Below, one piece after another: positions 1 through 16,438 of a stretch of 64,000 nt of DNA. The notes beneath the pieces are model-generated. The model was not told the DNA's origin. It worked only from the letters and a program-made list of their open reading frames with translations, and searched no databases. The stretch's first letter is position 1; every line of letters begins with the position of its first letter. Source of the DNA: Escherichia phage Bf23; sequence record OR083247.1; one strand, 5' to 3'. The position numbers and the translations under genes are program-made.

Positions 1-55
1 CGAACCCCCAACTTCTGGTTGGCAACCAAAAATTATACCCTTTAACTACGAACGC
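1..55 (-). tRNA. tRNA-Gly(GCC), 3' part cut by window edge
   Basis: Minus-strand fold: acceptor GCGTTCG, D-arm GTTA/AAGGGTA/TAAT, anticodon stem TTTGG/CCAGA (one G-U), loop TTGCCAA; T-loop runs off the window start. Confidence 0.5.
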
Positions 56-64
56 AAAATAAGT

Positions 65-186
65 CATTCTAGGCAGGATTCGAACCTGCTATCACTTGTG
101 CGGACTTACGAGAACCATTCTTTCACTCGAATCGAACGAGCTTCTGCCCTAGCCAAGCTGGTTTCCCCATCAACCACGCTAGAATG
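65..186 (-). ncRNA. tRNA-like element, non-canonical (about 121 nt, no encoded CCA)
   Basis: T-arm GCAGG/TTCGAAT/CCTGC at 73-89; perfect 7-bp acceptor-like pairing between 66-72 and 179-185; D-arm-like TGGT..ACCA; no canonical anticodon arm found. Confidence 0.3.
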
Positions 187-307
187 TTTGATTGTTTTCA
201 GTGCAAGAGTCCGAGTCTTGGACACGACCGCTTCGCAAGTACATAGGCAGCTTATCATGAGTCAGCACTTCCGAATTGCTAGCTCCGTGTTCTGCACTGA
301 AATTTTA

Positions 308-655
308 TTAGTTTAACCGTAAAGTATTATCTACTTCACCATTAATTGTTCGGCATTCCTCTGGGATTGTCGGAGTGGCCTTGTATTCCCACCACTCAGC
401 ACCGTCATACTCCCCACGTTCTAGCCAAGTTCCATCGGCAAACCATACATTACCATAAAGTAATTGTCCACCGTATCCAGAATCATATTCAAAGTCTAGG
501 TTATTAAGAAAATCCTCAATATCTTCTTCTGTATAGCCTAAAGGTAGTACCCAAACTTTTTTATCCCCATAATACCCGAATTCTATTTTAATACACTTAA
601 CTTCAGAATTAGTATTTTTTAAGGCAAGTAACAACTCTTCTTTGGCATTACGCAT
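308..655 (-). CDS. hypothetical protein (115 aa)
   Basis: ORF on the same strand as neighbouring early genes; no recognised motif. Confidence 0.45.
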   Translation of the reverse strand: MRNAKEELLLALKNTNSEVKCIKIEFGYYGDKKVWVLPLGYTEEDIEDFLNNLDFEYDSGYGGQLLYGNVWFADGTWLERGEYDGAEWWEYKATPTIPEECRTINGEVDNTLRLN

Positions 656-680
656 AGTATATTCTCATACTGAATTATTT

Positions 681-757
681 TGGCGCGACCGATGGGATTT
701 GAACCCACATTCTCTCCCGTGACAGGGGAGTACCATTACCAAGCCAGCCCCGGTCGC
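681..757 (-). tRNA. tRNA-Asp(GTC)
   Basis: Acceptor GCGACCG/CGGTCGC, anticodon stem CTCCC/GGGAG, loop CTGTCAC, T-arm GTGGG/TTCAAAT/CCCAT, discriminator G, CCA encoded (TGG at 681-683 on plus). Confidence 0.8.
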
Positions 758-766
758 ATAATTTAT

Positions 767-952
767 TTACTCAGCTTTGAGTTTTTCAATAGCTGCATTA
801 AGTTCTTTAAGAAACTCTTTTCGTACATTAAGACGATTGAGACTTACTAGTATATCATGTTTAAGTTCTTCGATGTATTTCTTCTCAACTTCAATATTGT
901 TGATAGTGCTATCACGATGAACCTCTAGCTGTGCAATTACGTTCTTAGACAT
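767..952 (-). CDS. hypothetical small coiled-coil protein (61 aa)
   Basis: ORF track; charged heptad-like sequence. Confidence 0.35.
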   Translation of the reverse strand: MSKNVIAQLEVHRDSTINNIEVEKKYIEELKHDILVSLNRLNVRKEFLKELNAAIEKLKAE

Positions 953-1054
953 ACTTATTTCCTCAGTTATTAATGAAAATGGTATCTGTGGCTGAATTCG
1001 ATGTCAGCAATGATAGCTGGTTGGCTACCGGTTTACTTAACTCTACACAGAATT

Positions 1055-1132
1055 TGGCGGTTCCTGCTGGATTCGAACCAGCAACCCTCAACTTAACAAG
1101 ATGCCGCTCTAACCAATTAGAGCTAAGGAACC
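1055..1132 (-). tRNA. tRNA-Asn(GTT)
   Basis: Acceptor GGTTCCT/AGGAACC, D-arm GCTC..GAGC, loop TTGTTAA, T-arm GCTGG/TTCGAAT/CCAGC, discriminator G, CCA encoded; anticodon stem has mismatches (3 of 5 pairs). Confidence 0.6.
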
Positions 1133-1627
1133 ATATAAGTCAGAACTAGAGTTAATACGTTCTAGATATTTACTAAGATCTCTAGAATTTATACTAAACC
1201 ACTCATGTTCTTTTAAATCTTTGAAATACTGGTGAATTAGTTTTTCACCTTTTCGTTTGTCAAACCAAAAAGACCAATGCTCTAACTTATAATCCCTATA
1301 AGGGGAATAAGTCTGATATTGAGCTAATCTCTCTTTTGGATTTTGACTCATGCCTATTTTATACTGATTTTTCCATGCAGGATTACTAATACAGTATACA
1401 AAACCTTCAGAAATAGGAAGTTTATTTTCCTGCTTAAACTTTATAAAGGAAAGTGCAGCAAGTTTTCTCGAATACATAGTATTTGTATTCTTTTTGGTAT
1501 TACCATTGGTTCCTGAAAGATTTATATATTCTTCCATAAATCTTTGGATTAGTTCTGCAGTTATATAGAAGGGCTCATTAGTAACAACGCCTTTCTTTAC
1601 CAAACTATCAAAAACTTTTGTATGCAC
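1109..1627 (-). CDS. GIY-YIG / T5orf172-like domain protein (172 aa)
   Basis: Motif GFVYCISNP..YKIGMSQNP..RLAQYQT matches the GIY-YIG-like T5orf172 pattern; 3' end overlaps tRNA-Asn by about 24 nt. Confidence 0.55.
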   Translation of the reverse strand: MHTKVFDSLVKKGVVTNEPFYITAELIQRFMEEYINLSGTNGNTKKNTNTMYSRKLAALSFIKFKQENKLPISEGFVYCISNPAWKNQYKIGMSQNPKERLAQYQTYSPYRDYKLEHWSFWFDKRKGEKLIHQYFKDLKEHEWFSINSRDLSKYLERINSSSDLYGSLALIG

Positions 1628-1648
1628 TACGCCTTTCCTTTAGTAATT

Positions 1649-1724
1649 TGGACGACCGCATGAGATTTGAACTCACATAAAAAGGATTTGCAATCCTTCG
1701 CCTAAGCCATTCAGCCAACGGTCG
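1649..1724 (-). tRNA. tRNA-Cys(GCA)
   Basis: Anticodon stem AAGGA/TCCTT, loop TTGCAAA, T-arm GTGAG/TTCAAAT/CTCAT, acceptor 7 bp with one G-U, discriminator U73 (Cys identity element), CCA encoded. Confidence 0.8.
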
Positions 1725-1902
1725 ATTTATCTTGTTTTTCGAGATCTTCAAATTCTAAATCATTGAAGTTCCCTAGAGTACGGGAGTAGAACCCGTCTCC
1801 TGCGTCATAGCCTGATTTGCCACAATCACACATTTTAAATTCACGAAGATGTGTAAAAACATGTTCAGAACCACAACACTTAAATCTAACTAATCGTTTC
1901 AT
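1711..1902 (-). CDS. small Cys-rich protein, possible zinc ribbon (63 aa)
   Basis: CC..H..C.C spacing in the translated ORF; stop overlaps the tRNA-Cys 5' end. Confidence 0.4.
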   Translation of the reverse strand: MKRLVRFKCCGSEHVFTHLREFKMCDCGKSGYDAGDGFYSRTLGNFNDLEFEDLEKQDKSTVG

Positions 1903-1931
1903 TAGCTTCTCCAGTTCAATTTATGTAATTA

Positions 1932-2240
1932 TTATATAGAACTTTTGGAAACTAAGCAACTACATTTTTTTAAGAATTTGATGCCTTTCTTTTTCTTCTT
2001 ATATTTCCACGTTAATGGATTTTGTCGATTATGAACGCTTGAGATCTTTGTCTCGTCAAAGTTCTTCAATATCATGTAATCACAGGATAATTGTTTTAGT
2101 GGAATGTGATCCCCGTCAAAAGCGTATACATAAGGCTGTTGACTAGCACGATAATGATAGACTTTGTTAATTCTACGTTTCAGCGACTTATCCGCACAGT
2201 AAATAAAGAAGTTTTCAGGATGCACTAGCATCTCCTTCAA
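1932..2240 (-). CDS. hypothetical protein (102 aa)
   Basis: ORF track; lysine-rich C-terminus. Confidence 0.4.
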   Translation of the reverse strand: MKEMLVHPENFFIYCADKSLKRRINKVYHYRASQQPYVYAFDGDHIPLKQLSCDYMILKNFDETKISSVHNRQNPLTWKYKKKKKGIKFLKKCSCLVSKSSI

Positions 2241-2242
2241 TT

Positions 2243-2317
2243 TGGTGCACCCTGTTCGAATTGAACGAACCTCTCAAGCTCTTCAGGCAAGCGCTAATCC
2301 ATCTCAGCTAAAGGTGC
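2243..2317 (-). tRNA. tRNA-Phe(GAA)
   Basis: Acceptor GCACCTT/AGGGTGC (one G-U), D-stem GCTG/TAGC, loop CTGAAGA, T-arm GTTCG/TTCAATT/CGAAC, discriminator A73, CCA encoded; anticodon stem carries two U-U mismatches. Confidence 0.55.
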
Positions 2318-2323
2318 AAATTT

Positions 2324-2394
2324 TGGCAGGGGTAAAGGTATTCGAAACCTTTTCATGGGTTTTGTAGGCCCATTTGCAACCTATGCGTACCCCA
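2324..2394 (-). tRNA. tRNA-like gene, anticodon unassigned (short, possibly degenerate)
   Basis: CCA encoded, T-arm AAGGT/TTCGAAT/ACCTT, 6-bp acceptor GGGGTA/TACCCC; middle region only 35 nt and no canonical 7-nt anticodon loop resolved. Confidence 0.35.
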
Positions 2395-2403
2395 ATTGTT
2401 AAT

Positions 2404-2480
2404 TGGCGTCCTGTGCGGGGATCGAACCCGCAAACCCTACCTTGAAAGGGTAGTGACTTTACCCGTTTGTCTAACAGGAC
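2404..2480 (-). tRNA. tRNA-Glu(TTC)
   Basis: Perfect acceptor GTCCTGT/ACAGGAC, anticodon stem CTACC/GGTAG, loop CTTTCAA, T-arm GCGGG/TTCGATC/CCCGC, discriminator G, CCA encoded. Confidence 0.8.
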
Positions 2481-2486
2481 TTAAAT

Positions 2487-2574
2487 TGGTAGGGGAGGAT
2501 GGAGTCGAACCACCCGAGTCGCAATGACAACTAATTTACAGTCAGCTCTGCTACCACTTACAGAATACTCCCCC
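2487..2574 (-). tRNA. tRNA-Tyr(GTA), type II with long variable arm
   Basis: Anticodon loop CTGTAAA with stem GCTGA/TTAGT (two G-U), variable arm about 15 nt, T-arm GGTGG/TTCGACT/CCATC, discriminator A73, CCA encoded; 88 nt. Confidence 0.65.
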
Positions 2575-2699
2575 ATATTTGAATGAAAAGTAAGTCGGTT
2601 AAACTCAAGGTGGAATATTTCAGGATTTCCTGACTTTACCCCTCAAAGCAGCTCGCTTAGTTACTTCTCATTCAGATATGTTTTCCAAATTAGATAACT

Positions 2700-2728
2700 A
2701 TTATACCAAGTTTTAGGGCACTGAGCAA
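2700..2728 (-). promoter_or_regulatory. sigma70-type promoter reading into the tRNA cluster (-35 TTGCTC, 17-nt spacer, -10 TATAAT)
   Basis: Hexamers read on the minus strand immediately upstream of tRNA-Tyr. Confidence 0.5.
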
Positions 2729-2756
2729 GTCAGATTTTGAAGAACTTGCTCAGTGC
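2718..2756. terminator. 12-bp perfect hairpin GCACTGAGCAAG/CTTGCTCAGTGC downstream of ORF 2765-3040
   Basis: Inverted repeat with 15-nt loop; overlaps the -35 of the tRNA promoter; no strong U-tract, so could be a processing or attenuation structure. Confidence 0.4.
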
Positions 2757-2764
2757 TGTATTAG

Positions 2765-3040
2765 TTAGTCGAACTTAGGAGTGACAGCTAAGGAAAACGG
2801 AAGTTCAAAAATTTCTTCGCCCTCATTACTAACGGTAACTACACGACCTTTAAGTTCAGACATTGAAATATCAATATCAGCTTTTGCATCTGGAGCCATG
2901 CCAGCTTCAATACACTTAGCTTTAACTTCCGGTAAAAGCTCTACATTATAGAGATAGAGCCACTCAATCTCACCTTCCCAGTCTTCCCAGGATTTACAGA
3001 TTGCACTTTCAATACCAGTTGCTACAACACGATTTTGCAT
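2765..3040 (-). CDS. hypothetical protein (91 aa)
   Basis: ORF track; same-strand context. Confidence 0.5.
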   Translation of the reverse strand: MQNRVVATGIESAICKSWEDWEGEIEWLYLYNVELLPEVKAKCIEAGMAPDAKADIDISMSELKGRVVTVSNEGEEIFELPFSLAVTPKFD

Positions 3041-3130
3041 TAGTTAACTCCTTCATCAATTTATATAACTATTATATCAGAAATTTAAAGCAAAAGGCAA
3101 GTACATTTTTAAAAATTCTATTCGGAGGAG

Positions 3131-3337
3131 CTAAACTCCAGATTCTTCGGCCAAGTCTAGGCTAATAAGAGTTATAGCCATAATTGCTGCACCGTGTTCT
3201 TTTTCTCCGGTGTTTTTAGCAGAGTCTATAATATCCTTAATCTGCTCGTAATAACTTTTTACTTCTTGTTCAATGCCCGCCTCGGCTATCATGCCTTTAG
3301 TCATGAGTCGTTGCATGGTAATTTCAGGATTAGCCAT
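3131..3337 (-). CDS. hypothetical protein (68 aa)
   Basis: ORF track. Confidence 0.4.
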   Translation of the reverse strand: MANPEITMQRLMTKGMIAEAGIEQEVKSYYEQIKDIIDSAKNTGEKEHGAAIMAITLISLDLAEESGV

Positions 3338-3526
3338 GTTGTTTCTCCAGTTTCATTTTTAATAGTTTACAAATGAAGTCAATATCTTCATCTGTGCCTA
3401 AGTCTCTATCCTCAAGGGTCGCCTTGAAGTTTTTCGTCAATTCCATGAGGATGACCTCTCTAGAACGACGTGTTGGTGGCGGAGGAGATCTATACATCTT
3501 AATTCCTTAATTTGGTAGGGGTTATA

Positions 3527-4210
3527 TCATCTATTTTTCTTAATACTTTTAGGATCTTTCCCTGTTAGGGACTTATACCTTTTCCTTAATCCAGTATCAG
3601 ACAATCCTAGTTCTTTGGAGGCACGAATCCAGGAATATTTAGATACCCAGTACTCTATTTGCTCCACAGTAATATCTGGATTTATAGTTATCTCTTTAGG
3701 AGTACATGATTTACAGTGTGTTGCTCTTGAGCTAATTTCGCAGTGACAAATAGCACACGTATTTACAGTCCTTTCTGTATACCTGCCAATATTTTTGCCT
3801 GCATGAGTAGGTGTTAGTGCATGGCAATTTGGGCATAGGAGGGCTAAGTTATCCCATTCATTATTATAGTGATTTCCATCCTTATGTTCAAGTTCTAAAG
3901 GAATTGGTTTATCTAACCAACTTTCTAAGCCACAACTCTCACATTTATGTGGTTTTAGCCCCTCGTTAAGAATTTTATTCTTTAGTTTATAGGAAGAAAT
4001 AGGGCTGCCGTTATATAAATACTCTGTTGCAGACTTATATTTATTATCATACTGCCTATTCGCAGGAATAACTACTATTCCTAGTTTTCCTAAATATGCT
4101 TCCAAAGTGTTCGAGGAGCAGGATAGCATTCTTGCTATCTCTGCTTTAGATTTTCCCTGAGCTATCCACTGAGCTATTTCTTCCTTTCTATCTAGTATAT
4201 CAGTTCTCAT
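3527..4210 (-). CDS. HNH homing endonuclease (227 aa) with N-terminal HTH
   Basis: HNH core ELEHKDGNHYNNEWDNLALLCPNCHA plus additional Cys clusters; free-standing gene beside the tRNA cluster. Confidence 0.75.
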   Translation of the reverse strand: MRTDILDRKEEIAQWIAQGKSKAEIARMLSCSSNTLEAYLGKLGIVVIPANRQYDNKYKSATEYLYNGSPISSYKLKNKILNEGLKPHKCESCGLESWLDKPIPLELEHKDGNHYNNEWDNLALLCPNCHALTPTHAGKNIGRYTERTVNTCAICHCEISSRATHCKSCTPKEITINPDITVEQIEYWVSKYSWIRASKELGLSDTGLRKRYKSLTGKDPKSIKKNR

Positions 4211-4233
4211 AGTTTATGACTTTATAATTAAGT

Positions 4234-4272
4234 TGGTGGCTCCCCGAGGATTCGAACCTACATCTTCCACCA
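4234..4272 (-). ncRNA. tRNA-like minihelix (T-arm-like hairpin with encoded CCA)
   Basis: TGG, then stem TGGTGG/CCACCA enclosing a GGATTCGAACC T-loop motif; no partner acceptor strand or anticodon arm found; lies in the ORF-free 4211-4568 region. Confidence 0.3.
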
Positions 4273-4531
4273 GTTACGGCTTGATAATACCAATTATACT
4301 AGGACGGCAGTGTTACTACATAAGTGATTTCCACACCCCACTATTTATAAATTAGAGAAGAGTTTAGGGGAGAGGTTTCAGACGCCCCATTTTATACGTT
4401 CTAGCCACTAACCGGGATTGCCGCCCCCTGTGTACTAGTTTTACAACTAACCCACCGACTCTATTCAGTGCACTCCGGTTGGGATTCTGCACTCAGCGTA
4501 ATCGGCTCGCTGTTCCCTAATTTATGAATAT

Positions 4532-4560
4532 ATTATACAGAATTTATAAGCATTTAGCAA
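4532..4560 (-). promoter_or_regulatory. early promoter (-35 TTGCTA, 17-nt spacer, -10 TATAAT)
   Basis: Consensus hexamers on the minus strand inside an AT-rich block. Confidence 0.6.
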
Positions 4561-5169: not shown

Positions 5170-5859
5170 TCATAAACTACCCCCTTTCTGTACTATTGTG
5201 GCCCCCTCTTTCAAGAGGAATTCTTCTGCCTCTTCGGGGGAAATATTAAAGTATTCAGTAGATCCAGCAAATCCACTATAACCACAATTATGACTTTTAA
5301 AATACATATGTGCCTTCTTCTCTAAAGCAAGGGTTTCTGATTTAGAAGAGCTACCATATGTATAGTGGCCATAATACTTAGCTGTGGGATCCCCGGATGC
5401 AGTAATCAAATCCCTTAACCTACGAGCAGGAGAATTAGTAATTCCTATTTTTGTACCTAATGAACTAGTTATTATATAAAGTATCCCACCATCGCTCCAT
5501 ATATTGGAGCACTCAGGGCATCTATTACCCATATTTTTTATGGCACTAAAAGTGGTAATCCATACATGCCCCTTACTACAAGTAAGTTGTAGCTTAGAGT
5601 TATTATTTATATATTTGGTAATGGTGTAATATCCTAAACTACGCAAATATTCAGATACTTGTTCTTGAGTGTACCTAACATTTCCATAGCAGTAGGGACA
5701 ACCTCTTCCGTTCCTAATATTATTTAGGGTAGCATTAAAAACATGTCCATAGGTGCAACAGAACTGCATTTTAGTCCTAGTATTAGTATACTTATCATTA
5801 GTGAATAAGCCTCTACTAACTAGGTAACTCTCTACTTCTTCTTGTGTTAATTTTTTCAT
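5170..5859 (-). CDS. T5orf172 / GIY-YIG-like domain protein with N-terminal tandem zinc-ribbon repeats (229 aa)
   Basis: Two repeats of C..GH..(N20)..CP(Y/E)C followed by GGILYIIT..KIGITNSPARRLRDL. Confidence 0.55.
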   Translation of the reverse strand: MKKLTQEEVESYLVSRGLFTNDKYTNTRTKMQFCCTYGHVFNATLNNIRNGRGCPYCYGNVRYTQEQVSEYLRSLGYYTITKYINNNSKLQLTCSKGHVWITTFSAIKNMGNRCPECSNIWSDGGILYIITSSLGTKIGITNSPARRLRDLITASGDPTAKYYGHYTYGSSSKSETLALEKKAHMYFKSHNCGYSGFAGSTEYFNISPEEAEEFLLKEGATIVQKGGSL

Positions 5860-7085: not shown

Positions 7086-7724
7086 TTACTCTACTTCAAT
7101 GAAAGTAGAGGCGTTAGACTCGGACAGAACAAAATCAACATTTGTTGCAAAGTCCTGGTATTCCTCGTCATGCTGTTTAATCAGCTTCTCCAGTTCCAGC
7201 GGATCAATCAAGAATGGAGTATTCTTGAGTTCCAACAGGTTGAGCTGCATTTTAACTTCATCTTCGGAAGTTTTCTTATCGCGGGTAGCCATGCTATCCT
7301 GCAAACGCTCATATTTAGCATCAAACTGTGCTTTCTGCGTATTAAACTTAACCGTAGCGGCATGGAACTGCTTACGCATATTAGCCAGCAACTGAGCTTT
7401 AAGCTCCATAGAACGTTTAGCTTCAATTGCTTCTGCAACAGTCATTTTACGAGAACCAATCTCAACGATTGTTTCCGCATTGCTCTTAATCAAAGCAGCT
7501 TTGATTCGGTCACGCTGGGACATCATATCCAGCAGAGACTGGAAATCTGTCTTAATACGATTAGACAGATCTTCTACTTCGATTGCAGCGCCAACTACAA
7601 CCTGGTTTTTATCCTTACCCTCACCAACAGCGATCAGAAGCTGTTGTTCAGTAGCTTTACGGATTTTAGCTTCCAGAGATTTGATGGTTGCCAGAGCACG
7701 AGTTTTAGAAATACGAGTGGTCAT
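7086..7724 (-). CDS. hypothetical coiled-coil protein (212 aa)
   Basis: Charged heptad-rich sequence; co-directional with neighbours; preferred over the overlapping plus-strand ORF 6945-7742. Confidence 0.55.
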   Translation of the reverse strand: MTTRISKTRALATIKSLEAKIRKATEQQLLIAVGEGKDKNQVVVGAAIEVEDLSNRIKTDFQSLLDMMSQRDRIKAALIKSNAETIVEIGSRKMTVAEAIEAKRSMELKAQLLANMRKQFHAATVKFNTQKAQFDAKYERLQDSMATRDKKTSEDEVKMQLNLLELKNTPFLIDPLELEKLIKQHDEEYQDFATNVDFVLSESNASTFIEVE

Positions 7725-14107: not shown

Positions 14108-16438
14108 TTATAACTGGCAACCACCCGAAGCACAACCCGCTGCTTCTTCACCAGCCCCACCACCATTTGCAGTGTTGAAGTTTGCGTAGTACCAAGTCTT
14201 CCAACCATATTTAACAGCAGTCATGAAATCACGAACTACTACCGGGCCAGGAATGATTTCATTCTCAAACTTGGTGTAGTCATAGTACATATTAGTACTG
14301 ATAGACTGGCTGAAGAATTTCTGCATAGTTGCTACCCATTTGATCCATTCAATACGATCTACATCATAAGCCAGTTTATAGCTCATTAACGTTTCCCAGT
14401 CGGTTGCACCTGGAGCAATTGCAATTACTTTATTCACTGCACTACCCTTGATAGATACAATCTTACGAGGTGGTTCAATAGAGTTAGTAACCCCTAACAG
14501 AACGGAAGAACTTTCTCCCGGCATCTGCGCAGTCAGAACAGAATTACGCATACCGTACTTCAGAATGTCTGCACGCAGAGATTCCCAATCCATTTCTAGA
14601 CCTACGGATACCAACTCATCAACAGTTTTCTTATACGTGTCGATTACCAGGATTCCTTTGGATGGTTTAGTACGATTAAACCATTCACATGCACCTTGCT
14701 CTTTGGCTAGACGTACAGAGGCTTTATGCAGGAAGTAGGACAATTTTTCAGCTTCACGATGAATCCAGTTACGAGCCTCAATACCTTCATAAGCCAGACC
14801 TTCTGCTGCCATTGCACCTGCTGCGTTCATAAGGCCAATACCAACGTTACGACGTTTCTTAGCTGTATATTCCATGGTCGGGAACGGATAGTCCTGAATT
14901 TCAATAATTGTATCAACGAATTTCAGGAGGATGTAGCAGGTTTTTTCCCACTCAGCCAGAGATTCCATGCGTCCAAGTACAACACCACCTAAGTTACACA
15001 GAGATACTTCACCAATATCCTCCGGCTTCATTTGATCAAGTTGTTCTTTTGTTTTATACAGTTCCGTGATATGATGGAACGGGCGTGTAGGTTGAGTAAT
15101 TTCAACACAAAGGTTTGTCATACGGATCGGATCAAGGAAGTTACCGTGACGATTAGATTCCCCGATGTGGTGAGCATACATACGTCCTGTTTCCATTCGG
15201 ATACGTAGCCAAGTATCTAGGATTTCTTTTGCAGAGACTTTAGGAGCTGCTGGAACTGTTTTTCCTTCGTGGTCGATCTTTGTAAGAGATGCCACACGTT
15301 TCTCCGCTGCCACATAGATTTCTTCAAATTTAGCCTCGTCATCACTATAAAACGCTTCATGAACTTCTGGAGCATAGAAGTATGACATTAGCGTAATATC
15401 TTCATTTTTCAGATAACGTTTTAACAAAAGATTGTTGAAGCTCAGAGAATAATCCATCTTATCGATTTTATTCTCATCTGTAGCACGTTGTTGCTTAACC
15501 TGCATCAATTGAATGATTTCAGGGTCAAAGTATGGATAAGACACTGTAGCAGAACCACCACGAGTTTGCTGAGTATTGGCCTTTACTGAGCGGTCAATGT
15601 GTCGATAATATGGCAGTTTTCCGGAATGCGGGAATGCCCCATTTCGCACCGGATCAGCAATTGATCGGCTTTCAAGATGATACCCGATTCCCGCTCTGGC
15701 TGCGACCATTTTGAAGACGATGTGCTCGGCGGTGTCGATTGAATCCAACGTGTCAGTGGAATCCACGAGGCAGCAACTAGCAAATCCACGGTCACTAGAG
15801 CGCAGACCAACCAGTGGCGGCGTAGGAACGTTGATTTTGTGGAGCGACATTGCGTTGTAGAGGTCGATTGCATCTAGAATTGTCCAGTTAGGTTGAGATA
15901 ACATCGCCATTGCCATACCCATGTAGGCAAACTGCGGAGTTTCATAAATTTCACCAGTGGCTATGTTGCGGCGGGAATACTTATCAAAGAACTGCTTCAG
16001 TCCACCACTAGTAAAAAGACGGTCACGATCATGGTCGATAACCTGATTCAGAGCTTCAAATTGCTCATCGGTAATCCATGCACTCATGTCTTCCCATGCA
16101 CCTACGCTAACCATGTGGTCATGGAAGAAGCGCAGAGAAGGTGGTTCGAAAGAATCATAAAGGCGTTTACGCATTTGCGCAAGACGTAATTCCTTTGCTG
16201 GCACATCGTATGCTGGGTTATCTTTGATAAGACTTTCAGCAGCCTTAATTAATGCGTCCATCAGAGTGTCGGAATCTACAACCCCTTTAGGCAGAGTTTT
16301 TTGAGCAGCCATAGTAATGGCTGACCAACTTACATCAACTGTTTTGCAACCATACTCTGCCCAACCATTGAGTTTTTCAGGAGCAAAGTCTTCTACAGTA
16401 CCGTCACGTTTAATTACTTTTTCAATGCGATGGCTCAT
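14108..16438 (-). CDS. nrdA: ribonucleotide reductase large subunit (class Ia)
   Basis: About 776 aa; start moved to MSHRIEKV (ATG at 16436-16438) because of an AAAGGAAAG RBS; the ORF-track start lies 35 codons upstream. Confidence 0.9.
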   Translation of the reverse strand: MSHRIEKVIKRDGTVEDFAPEKLNGWAEYGCKTVDVSWSAITMAAQKTLPKGVVDSDTLMDALIKAAESLIKDNPAYDVPAKELRLAQMRKRLYDSFEPPSLRFFHDHMVSVGAWEDMSAWITDEQFEALNQVIDHDRDRLFTSGGLKQFFDKYSRRNIATGEIYETPQFAYMGMAMAMLSQPNWTILDAIDLYNAMSLHKINVPTPPLVGLRSSDRGFASCCLVDSTDTLDSIDTAEHIVFKMVAARAGIGYHLESRSIADPVRNGAFPHSGKLPYYRHIDRSVKANTQQTRGGSATVSYPYFDPEIIQLMQVKQQRATDENKIDKMDYSLSFNNLLLKRYLKNEDITLMSYFYAPEVHEAFYSDDEAKFEEIYVAAEKRVASLTKIDHEGKTVPAAPKVSAKEILDTWLRIRMETGRMYAHHIGESNRHGNFLDPIRMTNLCVEITQPTRPFHHITELYKTKEQLDQMKPEDIGEVSLCNLGGVVLGRMESLAEWEKTCYILLKFVDTIIEIQDYPFPTMEYTAKKRRNVGIGLMNAAGAMAAEGLAYEGIEARNWIHREAEKLSYFLHKASVRLAKEQGACEWFNRTKPSKGILVIDTYKKTVDELVSVGLEMDWESLRADILKYGMRNSVLTAQMPGESSSVLLGVTNSIEPPRKIVSIKGSAVNKVIAIAPGATDWETLMSYKLAYDVDRIEWIKWVATMQKFFSQSISTNMYYDYTKFENEIIPGPVVVRDFMTAVKYGWKTWYYANFNTANGGGAGEEAAGCASGGCQL

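Follow-up and report, generated by a model that had tools for sequence, protein, structure and literature searches.

The 64,000-nucleotide (nt) stretch of Escherichia phage Bf23 DNA analysed here (record OR083247.1; hereafter the window) opens with an array of tRNA genes at positions 1-2760. In coliphage BF23, a member of the genus Tequintavirus in the T5 family, this array makes up the half of the tRNA-rich region that lies nearest the promoter. We consider it very probable that this array serves both codon supply and the replacement of host tRNAs destroyed by defence nucleases. The initial annotation had described the array as a possible counter-defence module; this stands for tRNA-Tyr and tRNA-Asn, through published work on identical T5 sequences, and experimental support thus covers two of the seven tRNAs only.

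For T5-family phages, earlier publications already cover the locus with its tRNAs and promoter as well as the part that tRNA-Tyr and tRNA-Asn play in counter-defence, and the link between phage tRNAs and counter-defence is also made in the BF23 genome paper (PMC10644984). As an annotated and experimentally studied locus of a classical phage, the array has small value as a discovery.

The tRNA gene array and its promoters

Window positions 1-4261 were 99.9% identical (4,261 nt) to AJ604530, the 2004 record entitled 'Enterobacteria phage BF23 tRNA gene region'. Nucleotide identity to phage T5 was 97.3%, and T5 homology begins only at window position 63. The BF23 and T5 records carry annotation for every feature, and the feature tables match one by one. 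Parts of the region were common to 1,088 phage records, mostly from T5-like phages of Escherichia and Salmonella.

We predicted tRNA genes with ARAGORN over the whole 64-kb window and with the Rfam tRNA model RF00005 at its gathering score, and read the sequences directly. ARAGORN called exactly six complete genes, which all lie in the minus strand from 681 to 2574, each present once and without tandem duplication. Five of them passed the RF00005 gathering score (45.8-61.9 bits, E 5e-11 to 1.5e-6), as did a 3'-truncated tRNA at 1-55 (32.9 bits). The sixth, tRNA-Tyr, carries a long variable arm and fell below the Rfam threshold, its best result being 28.6 bits on the tRNA-Sec model (47 needed), so that ARAGORN alone calls it. 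The tRNA genes and the promoters of the array are the following:

1-55, minus strand: tRNA-Gly(GCC), 5' 55 nt, 3' end past the window edge; Rfam 32.9 bits; tRNAG2 of the BF23 record
681-757, minus strand: tRNA-Asp(GUC), G73, CCA; ARAGORN; Rfam 49 bits; identical to T5
1055-1132, minus strand: tRNA-Asn(GUU), G73, CCA, anticodon arm GCAUC-UUGUUAA-GUUGA; ARAGORN; Rfam 55.4 bits; identical to T5
1649-1724, minus strand: tRNA-Cys(GCA), U73, CCA; ARAGORN; Rfam 48.5 bits; identical to T5
2243-2317, minus strand: tRNA-Phe(GAA), A73, CCA; ARAGORN; Rfam 45.8 bits; identical to T5
2404-2480, minus strand: tRNA-Glu(UUC), G73, CCA; ARAGORN; Rfam 61.9 bits; 2 nt from T5
2487-2574, minus strand: tRNA-Tyr(GUA), 88 nt, A73, CCA, variable loop GUCAUUGCGAC; ARAGORN; identical to T5
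2700-2728, minus strand: core of promoter P14a, read from the sequence, inside annotated promoter 14a (2676-2750); conserved in T5 and SP15
1906-1980, minus strand: internal promoter P14b (BF23 record 7545-7619), annotated in T5 too

The initial annotation had claimed at least seven minus-strand tRNA genes (Gly, Asp, Asn, Cys, Phe, Glu and Tyr), and ARAGORN and Rfam together recovered them within 1-2574. Its discriminator bases and encoded CCA ends could likewise be read from the sequences: A73 in Tyr and Phe, U73 in Cys and G73 in Asp, Asn and Glu, followed by CCA in all six complete genes. The full copy of tRNA-Gly(GCC) in the BF23 record has an ACCA end. E. coli tRNA genes normally encode their CCA, and this feature gives no indication of counter-defence. 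Amber-suppressor tests for several tRNA genes are mentioned in the notes of the T5 and BF23 records. The tRNA array is confirmed, far beyond chance.

The tRNAs for Asp, Asn, Cys, Phe and Tyr were 100% identical to their T5 counterparts, while tRNA-Glu differed by 2 nt. Five tRNAs at full identity within a region about 97% identical suggest purifying selection on the tRNAs. The corresponding T5 region (NC_005859, about 32.9-37.1 kb; tRNAD, N, C, F, W, E and Y, P14a/P14b and hegA) agrees with the BF23 window in gene order and has the promoters, the small open reading frames (ORFs) and the HNH gene in common with it. It differs in that BF23 has an extra tRNA-Gly(GCC) besides the two substitutions in tRNA-Glu, in that the segment downstream of hegA is deleted in BF23, and in a tRNA-Trp-like gene whose anticodon is CCA in T5 and ACA in BF23. 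The tRNA-rich region of phage SP15 also shares the array order (Tyr-Glu-Trp-Phe ... Cys-Asn-Asp), and its Asp, Cys, Phe and Glu tRNAs have the same anticodon arms as those of BF23. Unlike BF23, SP15 has a canonical tRNA-Trp and is without the T5orf172 ORF of the array.

The sigma70-type promoter that the initial annotation had placed at 2700-2728 was borne out as the annotated P14a. Its core consists of the -35 element TTGCTC (2728-2723), a 17-nt spacer and the -10 element TATAAT (2705-2700), preceded by TGg (extended -10), and is nearly identical to the promoter of the SP15 tRNA-Tyr. In a reporter assay, the latter surpassed the promoters of tyrU and tyrV (PMC11555353). P14a, lying directly upstream of tRNA-Tyr, is thus predicted to be a strong phage promoter, the strength having been measured on the SP15 version. 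A simple consensus scan omitted P14a, of which the -35 element matches at 3/6 positions only, and found promoter-like sites no commoner than in shuffles (18 vs 18.4). Therefore, the promoter call rests on annotation, conservation and the published reporter data. The claim that this promoter drives the whole array held for the presence of P14a but not for its sole use: since P14b lies inside the array, the array need not form a single transcription unit, and one promoter need not drive all seven genes.

Two further observations concern the surroundings of P14a. A perfect 12-bp inverted repeat (GCACTGAGCAAG ... CTTGCTCAGTGC, 15-nt loop) closely follows the stop codon of ORF trn 2.5, at 2718-2756, and the -35 hexamer of P14a sits in its 3' arm. 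The repeat is conserved in T5 and SP15; it may act as an operator or, on transcripts arriving from upstream, as a terminator or processing hairpin. Between P14a and tRNA-Tyr there is a non-coding leader of ~125 nt (2575-2699), conserved with T5 and largely replaced in SP15.

Probable roles in the replacement of host tRNAs and in codon supply

We propose that host RNA polymerase would initiate at P14a, a strong early promoter, and a second time at P14b, producing long precursors in which the tRNAs lie 6-9 nt apart or are spaced by small ORFs. Host RNase P and 3' exonucleases would free tRNAs already bearing CCA, and host synthetases would charge them, their identity elements being kept. The phage tRNAs could then sustain translation in two ways, by meeting the greater demand for AT-rich codons and by replacing host tRNAs destroyed by abortive-infection nucleases. 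In the second of these, tRNA-Tyr, abundant from P14a, would neutralise retron-Eco7 (PtuAB), which depletes host tRNA-Tyr via a cut in the variable loop, and tRNA-Asn would act together with tRNA-Lys and tRNA-Thr to neutralise PARIS, whose AriB cleaves the anticodon stem at 40|41.

For tRNA-Tyr, the evidence has been published for this phage family. Azam et al. found that T5 and SP15 variants without the ~8-kb tRNA-rich region turn retron-Eco7-sensitive, the effect of gene loss being demonstrated for T5n and SP15m (PMC11555353). In the same work, deletion mapping and complementation assigned the rescue to tRNA-Tyr, the T5 tRNA-Tyr rescued too, and the retron-Eco7 effectors PtuAB depleted host tRNA-Tyr. 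Rescue depended on the very strong promoter of the phage tRNA-Tyr, with dosage contributing (PMC11555353). A further study placed the retron-Eco7 cut in host tRNA-Tyr at U47|C48 of the variable loop and found the SP15 tRNA-Tyr uncut; when the shorter variable loop of the host was put into the SP15 tRNA-Tyr, rescue was lost (PMC12673091). Since the BF23 tRNA-Tyr is base-for-base the rescuing T5 tRNA-Tyr, the published counter-defence applies to the window's sequence. The tRNA-Tyr case mentioned in the initial annotation is thereby accurate, as the identical T5 tRNA restores infection on retron-Eco7 hosts (PMC11555353).

The tested anti-retron-Eco7 element of SP15, fragment F6, consists of tRNA-Tyr and its promoter (PMC11555353, PMC12673091). 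Its promoter is nearly identical to that of BF23, whereas the tRNA itself has a different sequence and is longer than that of BF23 (91 vs 88 nt), as is its variable loop (14 vs 11 nt). The variable loops of tRNA-Tyr read GUCAUCGAC in the host (9 nt), GUCAUUGCGAC in BF23 and T5 (11 nt) and GACUCGGAAGGGUC in SP15 (14 nt). By analogy with the loop swap, which was made on the 14-nt SP15 loop only, the 2-nt-longer loop of BF23 and T5 may lower cleavage of tRNA-Tyr.

The second supported tRNA is tRNA-Asn. [quoted passage not shown] The Lys, Thr and Asn variants of T5 are jointly required to neutralise AriB (PMC11464382, PMC12409363). The Asn member of this set is present in the BF23 window in identical form, with substitutions at and around 40|41: its anticodon stem reads UAAGU|U where the host has UAAUC|C, and is without the host AriB site U36AAUC|C41. 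Unlike BF23 and T5, SP15 keeps a host-like arm in its tRNA-Asn (UAAUC|C).

The tRNA-Lys and tRNA-Thr genes lie outside the window, as judged by ARAGORN. In the BF23 record, tRNA-Lys(UUU) (record positions 4410-4487) has the anticodon arm GCGGA-CCUUUAA-UCCGU, with C33, a retained U39, and C41. Unlike the T5 tRNA-Lys, it does not carry U39A, the change making the T5 tRNA fully AriB-resistant, and has only the weaker of two protective changes. Since U39 is kept, PARIS protection of BF23 cannot simply be assumed. On the other hand, this difference from T5 at the AriB site makes the BF23 tRNA-Lys a ready-made test of PARIS specificity.

Considering these results, the tRNA-Tyr and tRNA-Asn effects shown in T5 presumably hold in BF23 itself, by analogy between identical tRNAs. 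The tRNAs for Asp, Cys, Phe, Glu and Gly may serve supply or other defences.

We fetched the E. coli K-12 tRNA genes and compared their anticodon arms with those of the seven window tRNAs, which are overall 55-72% identical to their host counterparts. The 7-nt anticodon loops of Tyr (CUGUAAA), Asp, Cys and Gly were identical to those of the host, while the loops differed in Asn at position 32 (U32), in Phe at 32 and 37 (C32 and G37; CUGAAGA vs UUGAAAA) and in Glu at 38 (A38). The initial annotation had held that loops identical to those of host targets would be equally cleavable; the Tyr loop is identical, yet its T5 copy rescues. We therefore rejected anticodon-loop divergence as a criterion for counter-defence. 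The loop rule was misdirected because the Tyr cut is in the variable loop and the Asn difference is in the anticodon stem. Compared with the nuclease-evading tRNAs mutated in the anticodon loop that were described in 2023 (cited in PMC10644984 and PMC11555353), the Asn, Phe and Glu loops of BF23 are alike in differing from the host, whereas the Tyr, Asp, Cys and Gly loops are unchanged and the Tyr and Asn determinants lie outside the loop.

Several points weigh against a combined role in supply and replacement. Five of the seven tRNAs are without a known defence target, and the codon demand for four of them (Gly, Cys, Phe and Glu) is about equal to that of the host. The whole region is dispensable in the laboratory, as seen in T5Mos, T5n and SP15m (PMC11555353, PMC11464382). 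The variable loop of the BF23/T5 tRNA-Tyr retains GU|CA at the cut site. Purified PtuAB left tRNA-Tyr uncut in vitro, so that direct cleavage is unsettled (PMC12819146). E. coli tRNA-Tyr matched the phage tRNA in rescue when expressed from the phage promoter (PMC11555353), and co-expressed Ec-tRNA-Tyr failed to abolish the defence in another study (PMC12673091). Finally, the literature that we found held no test of BF23 itself on retron-Eco7 or PARIS hosts.

The strongest alternative is that the array provides supply only, its tRNAs matching the codon and amino-acid demand of an AT-rich genome and sustaining translation after host DNA degradation and the end of host tRNA synthesis, with rescue as a by-product of abundance rather than a selected function. 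This view is cited in PMC10644984. We compared the codons of 54 long window ORFs (17,753 codons) with those of a small sample of 14 K-12 genes. In the window, which has 39% G+C, the codons for Asn, Tyr and Lys were 1.6-1.7-fold (Asn and Tyr about 1.6-fold) and those for Asp 1.26-fold more frequent than in the K-12 sample, while the ratios for Gly(GGY), Cys, Phe and Glu were 0.92-1.02. The base composition and the Asn, Tyr and Lys enrichment favour supply, as do the Tyr, Asp, Cys and Gly anticodon loops shared with the host and the equal rescue by host tRNA-Tyr under the phage promoter. However, supply by itself would not account for the T5 tRNA-Lys and tRNA-Asn being substituted exactly at the AriB site, with the T5 tRNA-Lys uncleavable (PMC12409363, PMC11464382), for the rescue abolished by a host variable loop in the SP15 tRNA-Tyr (PMC12673091), or for Gly, Cys, Phe and Glu tRNAs kept without excess demand. 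We therefore regard supply alone as improbable. Both the substitutions at specific sites and the outcome of the loop swap speak for selection of defence evasion rather than for an incidental effect. Moreover, since Tyr and Asn combine a codon excess with a defence target, supply and counter-defence point to the same tRNAs and are not exclusive.

A tentative extension of the combined role concerns the tRNAs beyond Tyr and Asn. P2-OLD cuts tRNAs with a paired C-N-G motif in the anticodon stem, and a phage tRNA-Thr escapes by changing the motif (PMC12445682). Among the seven host counterparts, those for Asp, Asn, Cys, Tyr and Glu carried the paired C-N-G/C-N-G motif, against none of the seven phage copies (Fisher p = 0.02, in a post hoc test on seven pairs that is partly confounded by base composition, although the G+C of the Asp stem is equal in host and phage). 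It is thus conceivable, though rather unlikely, that the whole sub-array is hardened against Toprim-type tRNases (P2-OLD and PARIS AriB), which on this reading need the paired motif. If so, rapid gain and loss of array members would be made possible by the nucleases embedded in it and by its many T-arm repeats, a turnover that the 4.28-kb T-arm deletion described below would illustrate.

tRNA-like elements and the deletion downstream of hegA

Besides the seven tRNAs, the array holds an eighth tRNA gene, Trp-like, and two annotated tRNA-like RNAs (62-186 and 980-1053), all three missed by the initial annotation. These elements and a remnant further downstream are:

2324-2394, minus strand: tRNA-Trp-like gene, 71 nt, G73-CCA, U1.U72, anticodon ACA; annotated tRNA-Trp in the BF23 record
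62-186, minus strand: RNA2, 125-nt tRNA-like RNA, no encoded CCA; BF23 and T5 annotation
980-1053, minus strand: RNA3, 74-nt putative tRNA-like RNA, ACCA end; BF23 and T5 annotation
4234-4311, minus strand: dead chimeric tRNA remnant marking a 4,277-bp deletion; alignments to BF23 and T5 records

For the atypical Trp-like gene, the predicted fold is a cloverleaf whose D stem has 3 bp; the gene escapes both ARAGORN and Rfam, and its identity elements are unfit for Trp. Position 34 is C34 in T5 and three other T5-like phages and A34 in BF23 only. The gene is probably not a working tRNA-Trp in BF23, matching the tRNA set without Trp of PMC10644984, and may be a pseudogene or an odd missense tRNA.

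The predicted fold of RNA2 has an 8-bp acceptor-like stem, D and T arms and an insert of ~60 nt with a second T-arm-like hairpin (CUCG-UUCGAUU-CGAG). On this fold, RNA2 looks like a recombination fossil, a fused remnant of two tRNA genes. RNA3 lies directly 3' of tRNA-Asn on the coding strand, and its fold combines an acceptor-like stem of 6 bp with a T-like arm whose loop has 8 nt. We found no convincing anticodon arm in this fold, and RNA3 is called by neither ARAGORN nor Rfam.

The initial annotation had also suggested checking 4200-4560 for tRNAs. Neither ARAGORN nor Rfam (E up to 1) found any there, and the T-arm-like sequence at this place is a recombinant remnant. Identity to the BF23 and T5 records stops at 4261 inside tRNA-Ile2 and is taken up again by record positions 14159-14502. 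Exactly 15 bp are common to both parents, at window 4247-4261 (GTAGGTTCGAATCCT on the coding strand); this is the T arm both of tRNA-Ile2 and of a pseudo-tRNA inside RNAX that ARAGORN calls in the intact record. The chimera takes its 5' part from the RNAX pseudo-tRNA and its 3' part from tRNA-Ile2. Its acceptor strands are no longer complementary, and both programs call nothing there. The aligned sequences point to a crossover in T-arm microhomology as the origin of the 4,277-bp deletion.

The deletion removed the 5' part of tRNA-Ile2(CAU), tRNA-Ser3(GCU), tRNA-Arg(UCU) and most of RNAX, together with the Toprim protein ORF trn 2.1, three plus-strand ORFs, a terminator and ORF trn 1.1. ORF trn 2.1 is a homologue of SP15 ORF75, and its T5 homologue has been reported as Rad, an inhibitor of retron immunity (PMC10644984). 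The deleted genes (the Rad homologue, the ORFs of 326 and 138 amino acids, trn 1.1, tRNA-Arg and tRNA-Ser3) were found nowhere else in the 64-kb window. According to the BF23 genome paper, BF23 has a deletion of ~4 kb when compared with T5, with loss of Rad, and its tRNA set is without Arg and Trp (PMC10644984); the window fits both.

Three observations go beyond that paper: the deleted segment is present in the 2004 BF23 record AJ604530, the junction lies in T-arm microhomology, and no other record spans it among 50,697 phage records searched. Since the 2004 record has the segment, its loss separates two BF23 lineages or stocks. Moreover, as this BF23 genome keeps tRNA-Tyr and has lost Rad, it offers a natural single-factor background for studying tRNA-Tyr protection against retron-Eco7 and Septu.

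Interleaved reading frames and nuclease genes

The following protein-coding genes lie among the tRNAs and beyond them:

308-655, minus strand: ORF trn 2.10, 115 amino acids, unknown function; phrog_3972; no Pfam match
767-952, minus strand: ORF trn 2.9, 61 amino acids, DUF7337; Pfam PF24026, E 4.8e-30
1109-1627, minus strand: ORF trn 2.8, 172 amino acids, T5orf172/MUG113, putative nuclease-like mobile gene; PF13455 E 5.5e-16; PF10544 E 2.5e-12
1711-1902, minus strand: ORF trn 2.7*, 63 amino acids, Cys-rich, weak DUF7695 match; Pfam 23.3 bits, below cut-off; phrog_7042
1953-2225, minus strand: ORF trn 2.6, 90 amino acids, unknown function; phrog_5876
3527-4210, minus strand: hegA, H-N-H endonuclease F-TflIV, N-terminal helix-turn-helix; BF23/T5 annotation; phrog_14736 E 2.6e-80; Pfam GerE, weak HNH_3

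Three further small ORFs are annotated between promoter 14a and hegA. Compared with Pfam and PHROGs, the small interleaved ORFs matched only domains of unknown function and families of 'unknown function', and no known anti-defence family. The initial annotation had described small ORFs and endonuclease genes as interleaved with the tRNAs. This holds for the small ORFs and for 1109-1627, but the latter is the only nuclease-like ORF in 1-2760, hegA lying at 3527-4210. ORF trn 2.8 overlaps the first 24 nt of tRNA-Asn, and the segment 1080-1641 is missing in SP15, as expected for a mobile nuclease-type insertion.

It is very improbable that the array is mostly neutral cargo shaped by homing-type nucleases at T-arm sequences, with tRNA genes kept as landing sites: the nuclease-like genes in and around it (the T5orf172 ORF being present in BF23 and missing in SP15), the common pseudo-tRNAs and chimeras (RNA2, RNA3, the Trp-like gene and the 4234-4311 remnant), the 4.28-kb loss through a T-arm crossover and the dispensability in culture would agree with such accretion, but BF23 and T5 have five tRNAs without a single difference amid diverging flanks, the tRNAs have kept their identity elements and CCA, and direct phenotypes have been published for tRNA-Tyr, tRNA-Lys, tRNA-Thr and tRNA-Asn (PMC11555353, PMC12409363).

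A second T5orf172/MUG113 ORF lies beyond the deletion at 5170-5859 (compare PMC10644984). It also contains a treble-clef zinc finger and CapR homology and matches GIY-YIG weakly. This ORF and hegA bracket the deletion junction.

A related case is the tRNA-segB locus of phage T6, in which SegB drives amplification of tRNA-Tyr in evasion of Septu and cuts T-arm DNA at the motif RAWTSGAAC (PMC13096335). This locus resembles the BF23/T5 type in countering PtuAB through tRNA-Tyr dosage, in having nuclease genes in the tRNA array and in short-homology recombination at tRNAs. It differs in that T6 amplifies by copy number, while T5-type phages rely on a strong promoter and the BF23 event is a loss. 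The BF23 nuclease-like ORFs matched T5orf172/MUG113 and HNH models rather than SegB, with no direct comparison to SegB made. The SegB motif is the complement of T-loop DNA, and the BF23 deletion crossover lies in exactly such a T-arm sequence. By analogy, there is a hint that hegA and the 5170-5859 ORF may have taken part in the T-arm deletion, in a nuclease-assisted remodelling similar to that by SegB.

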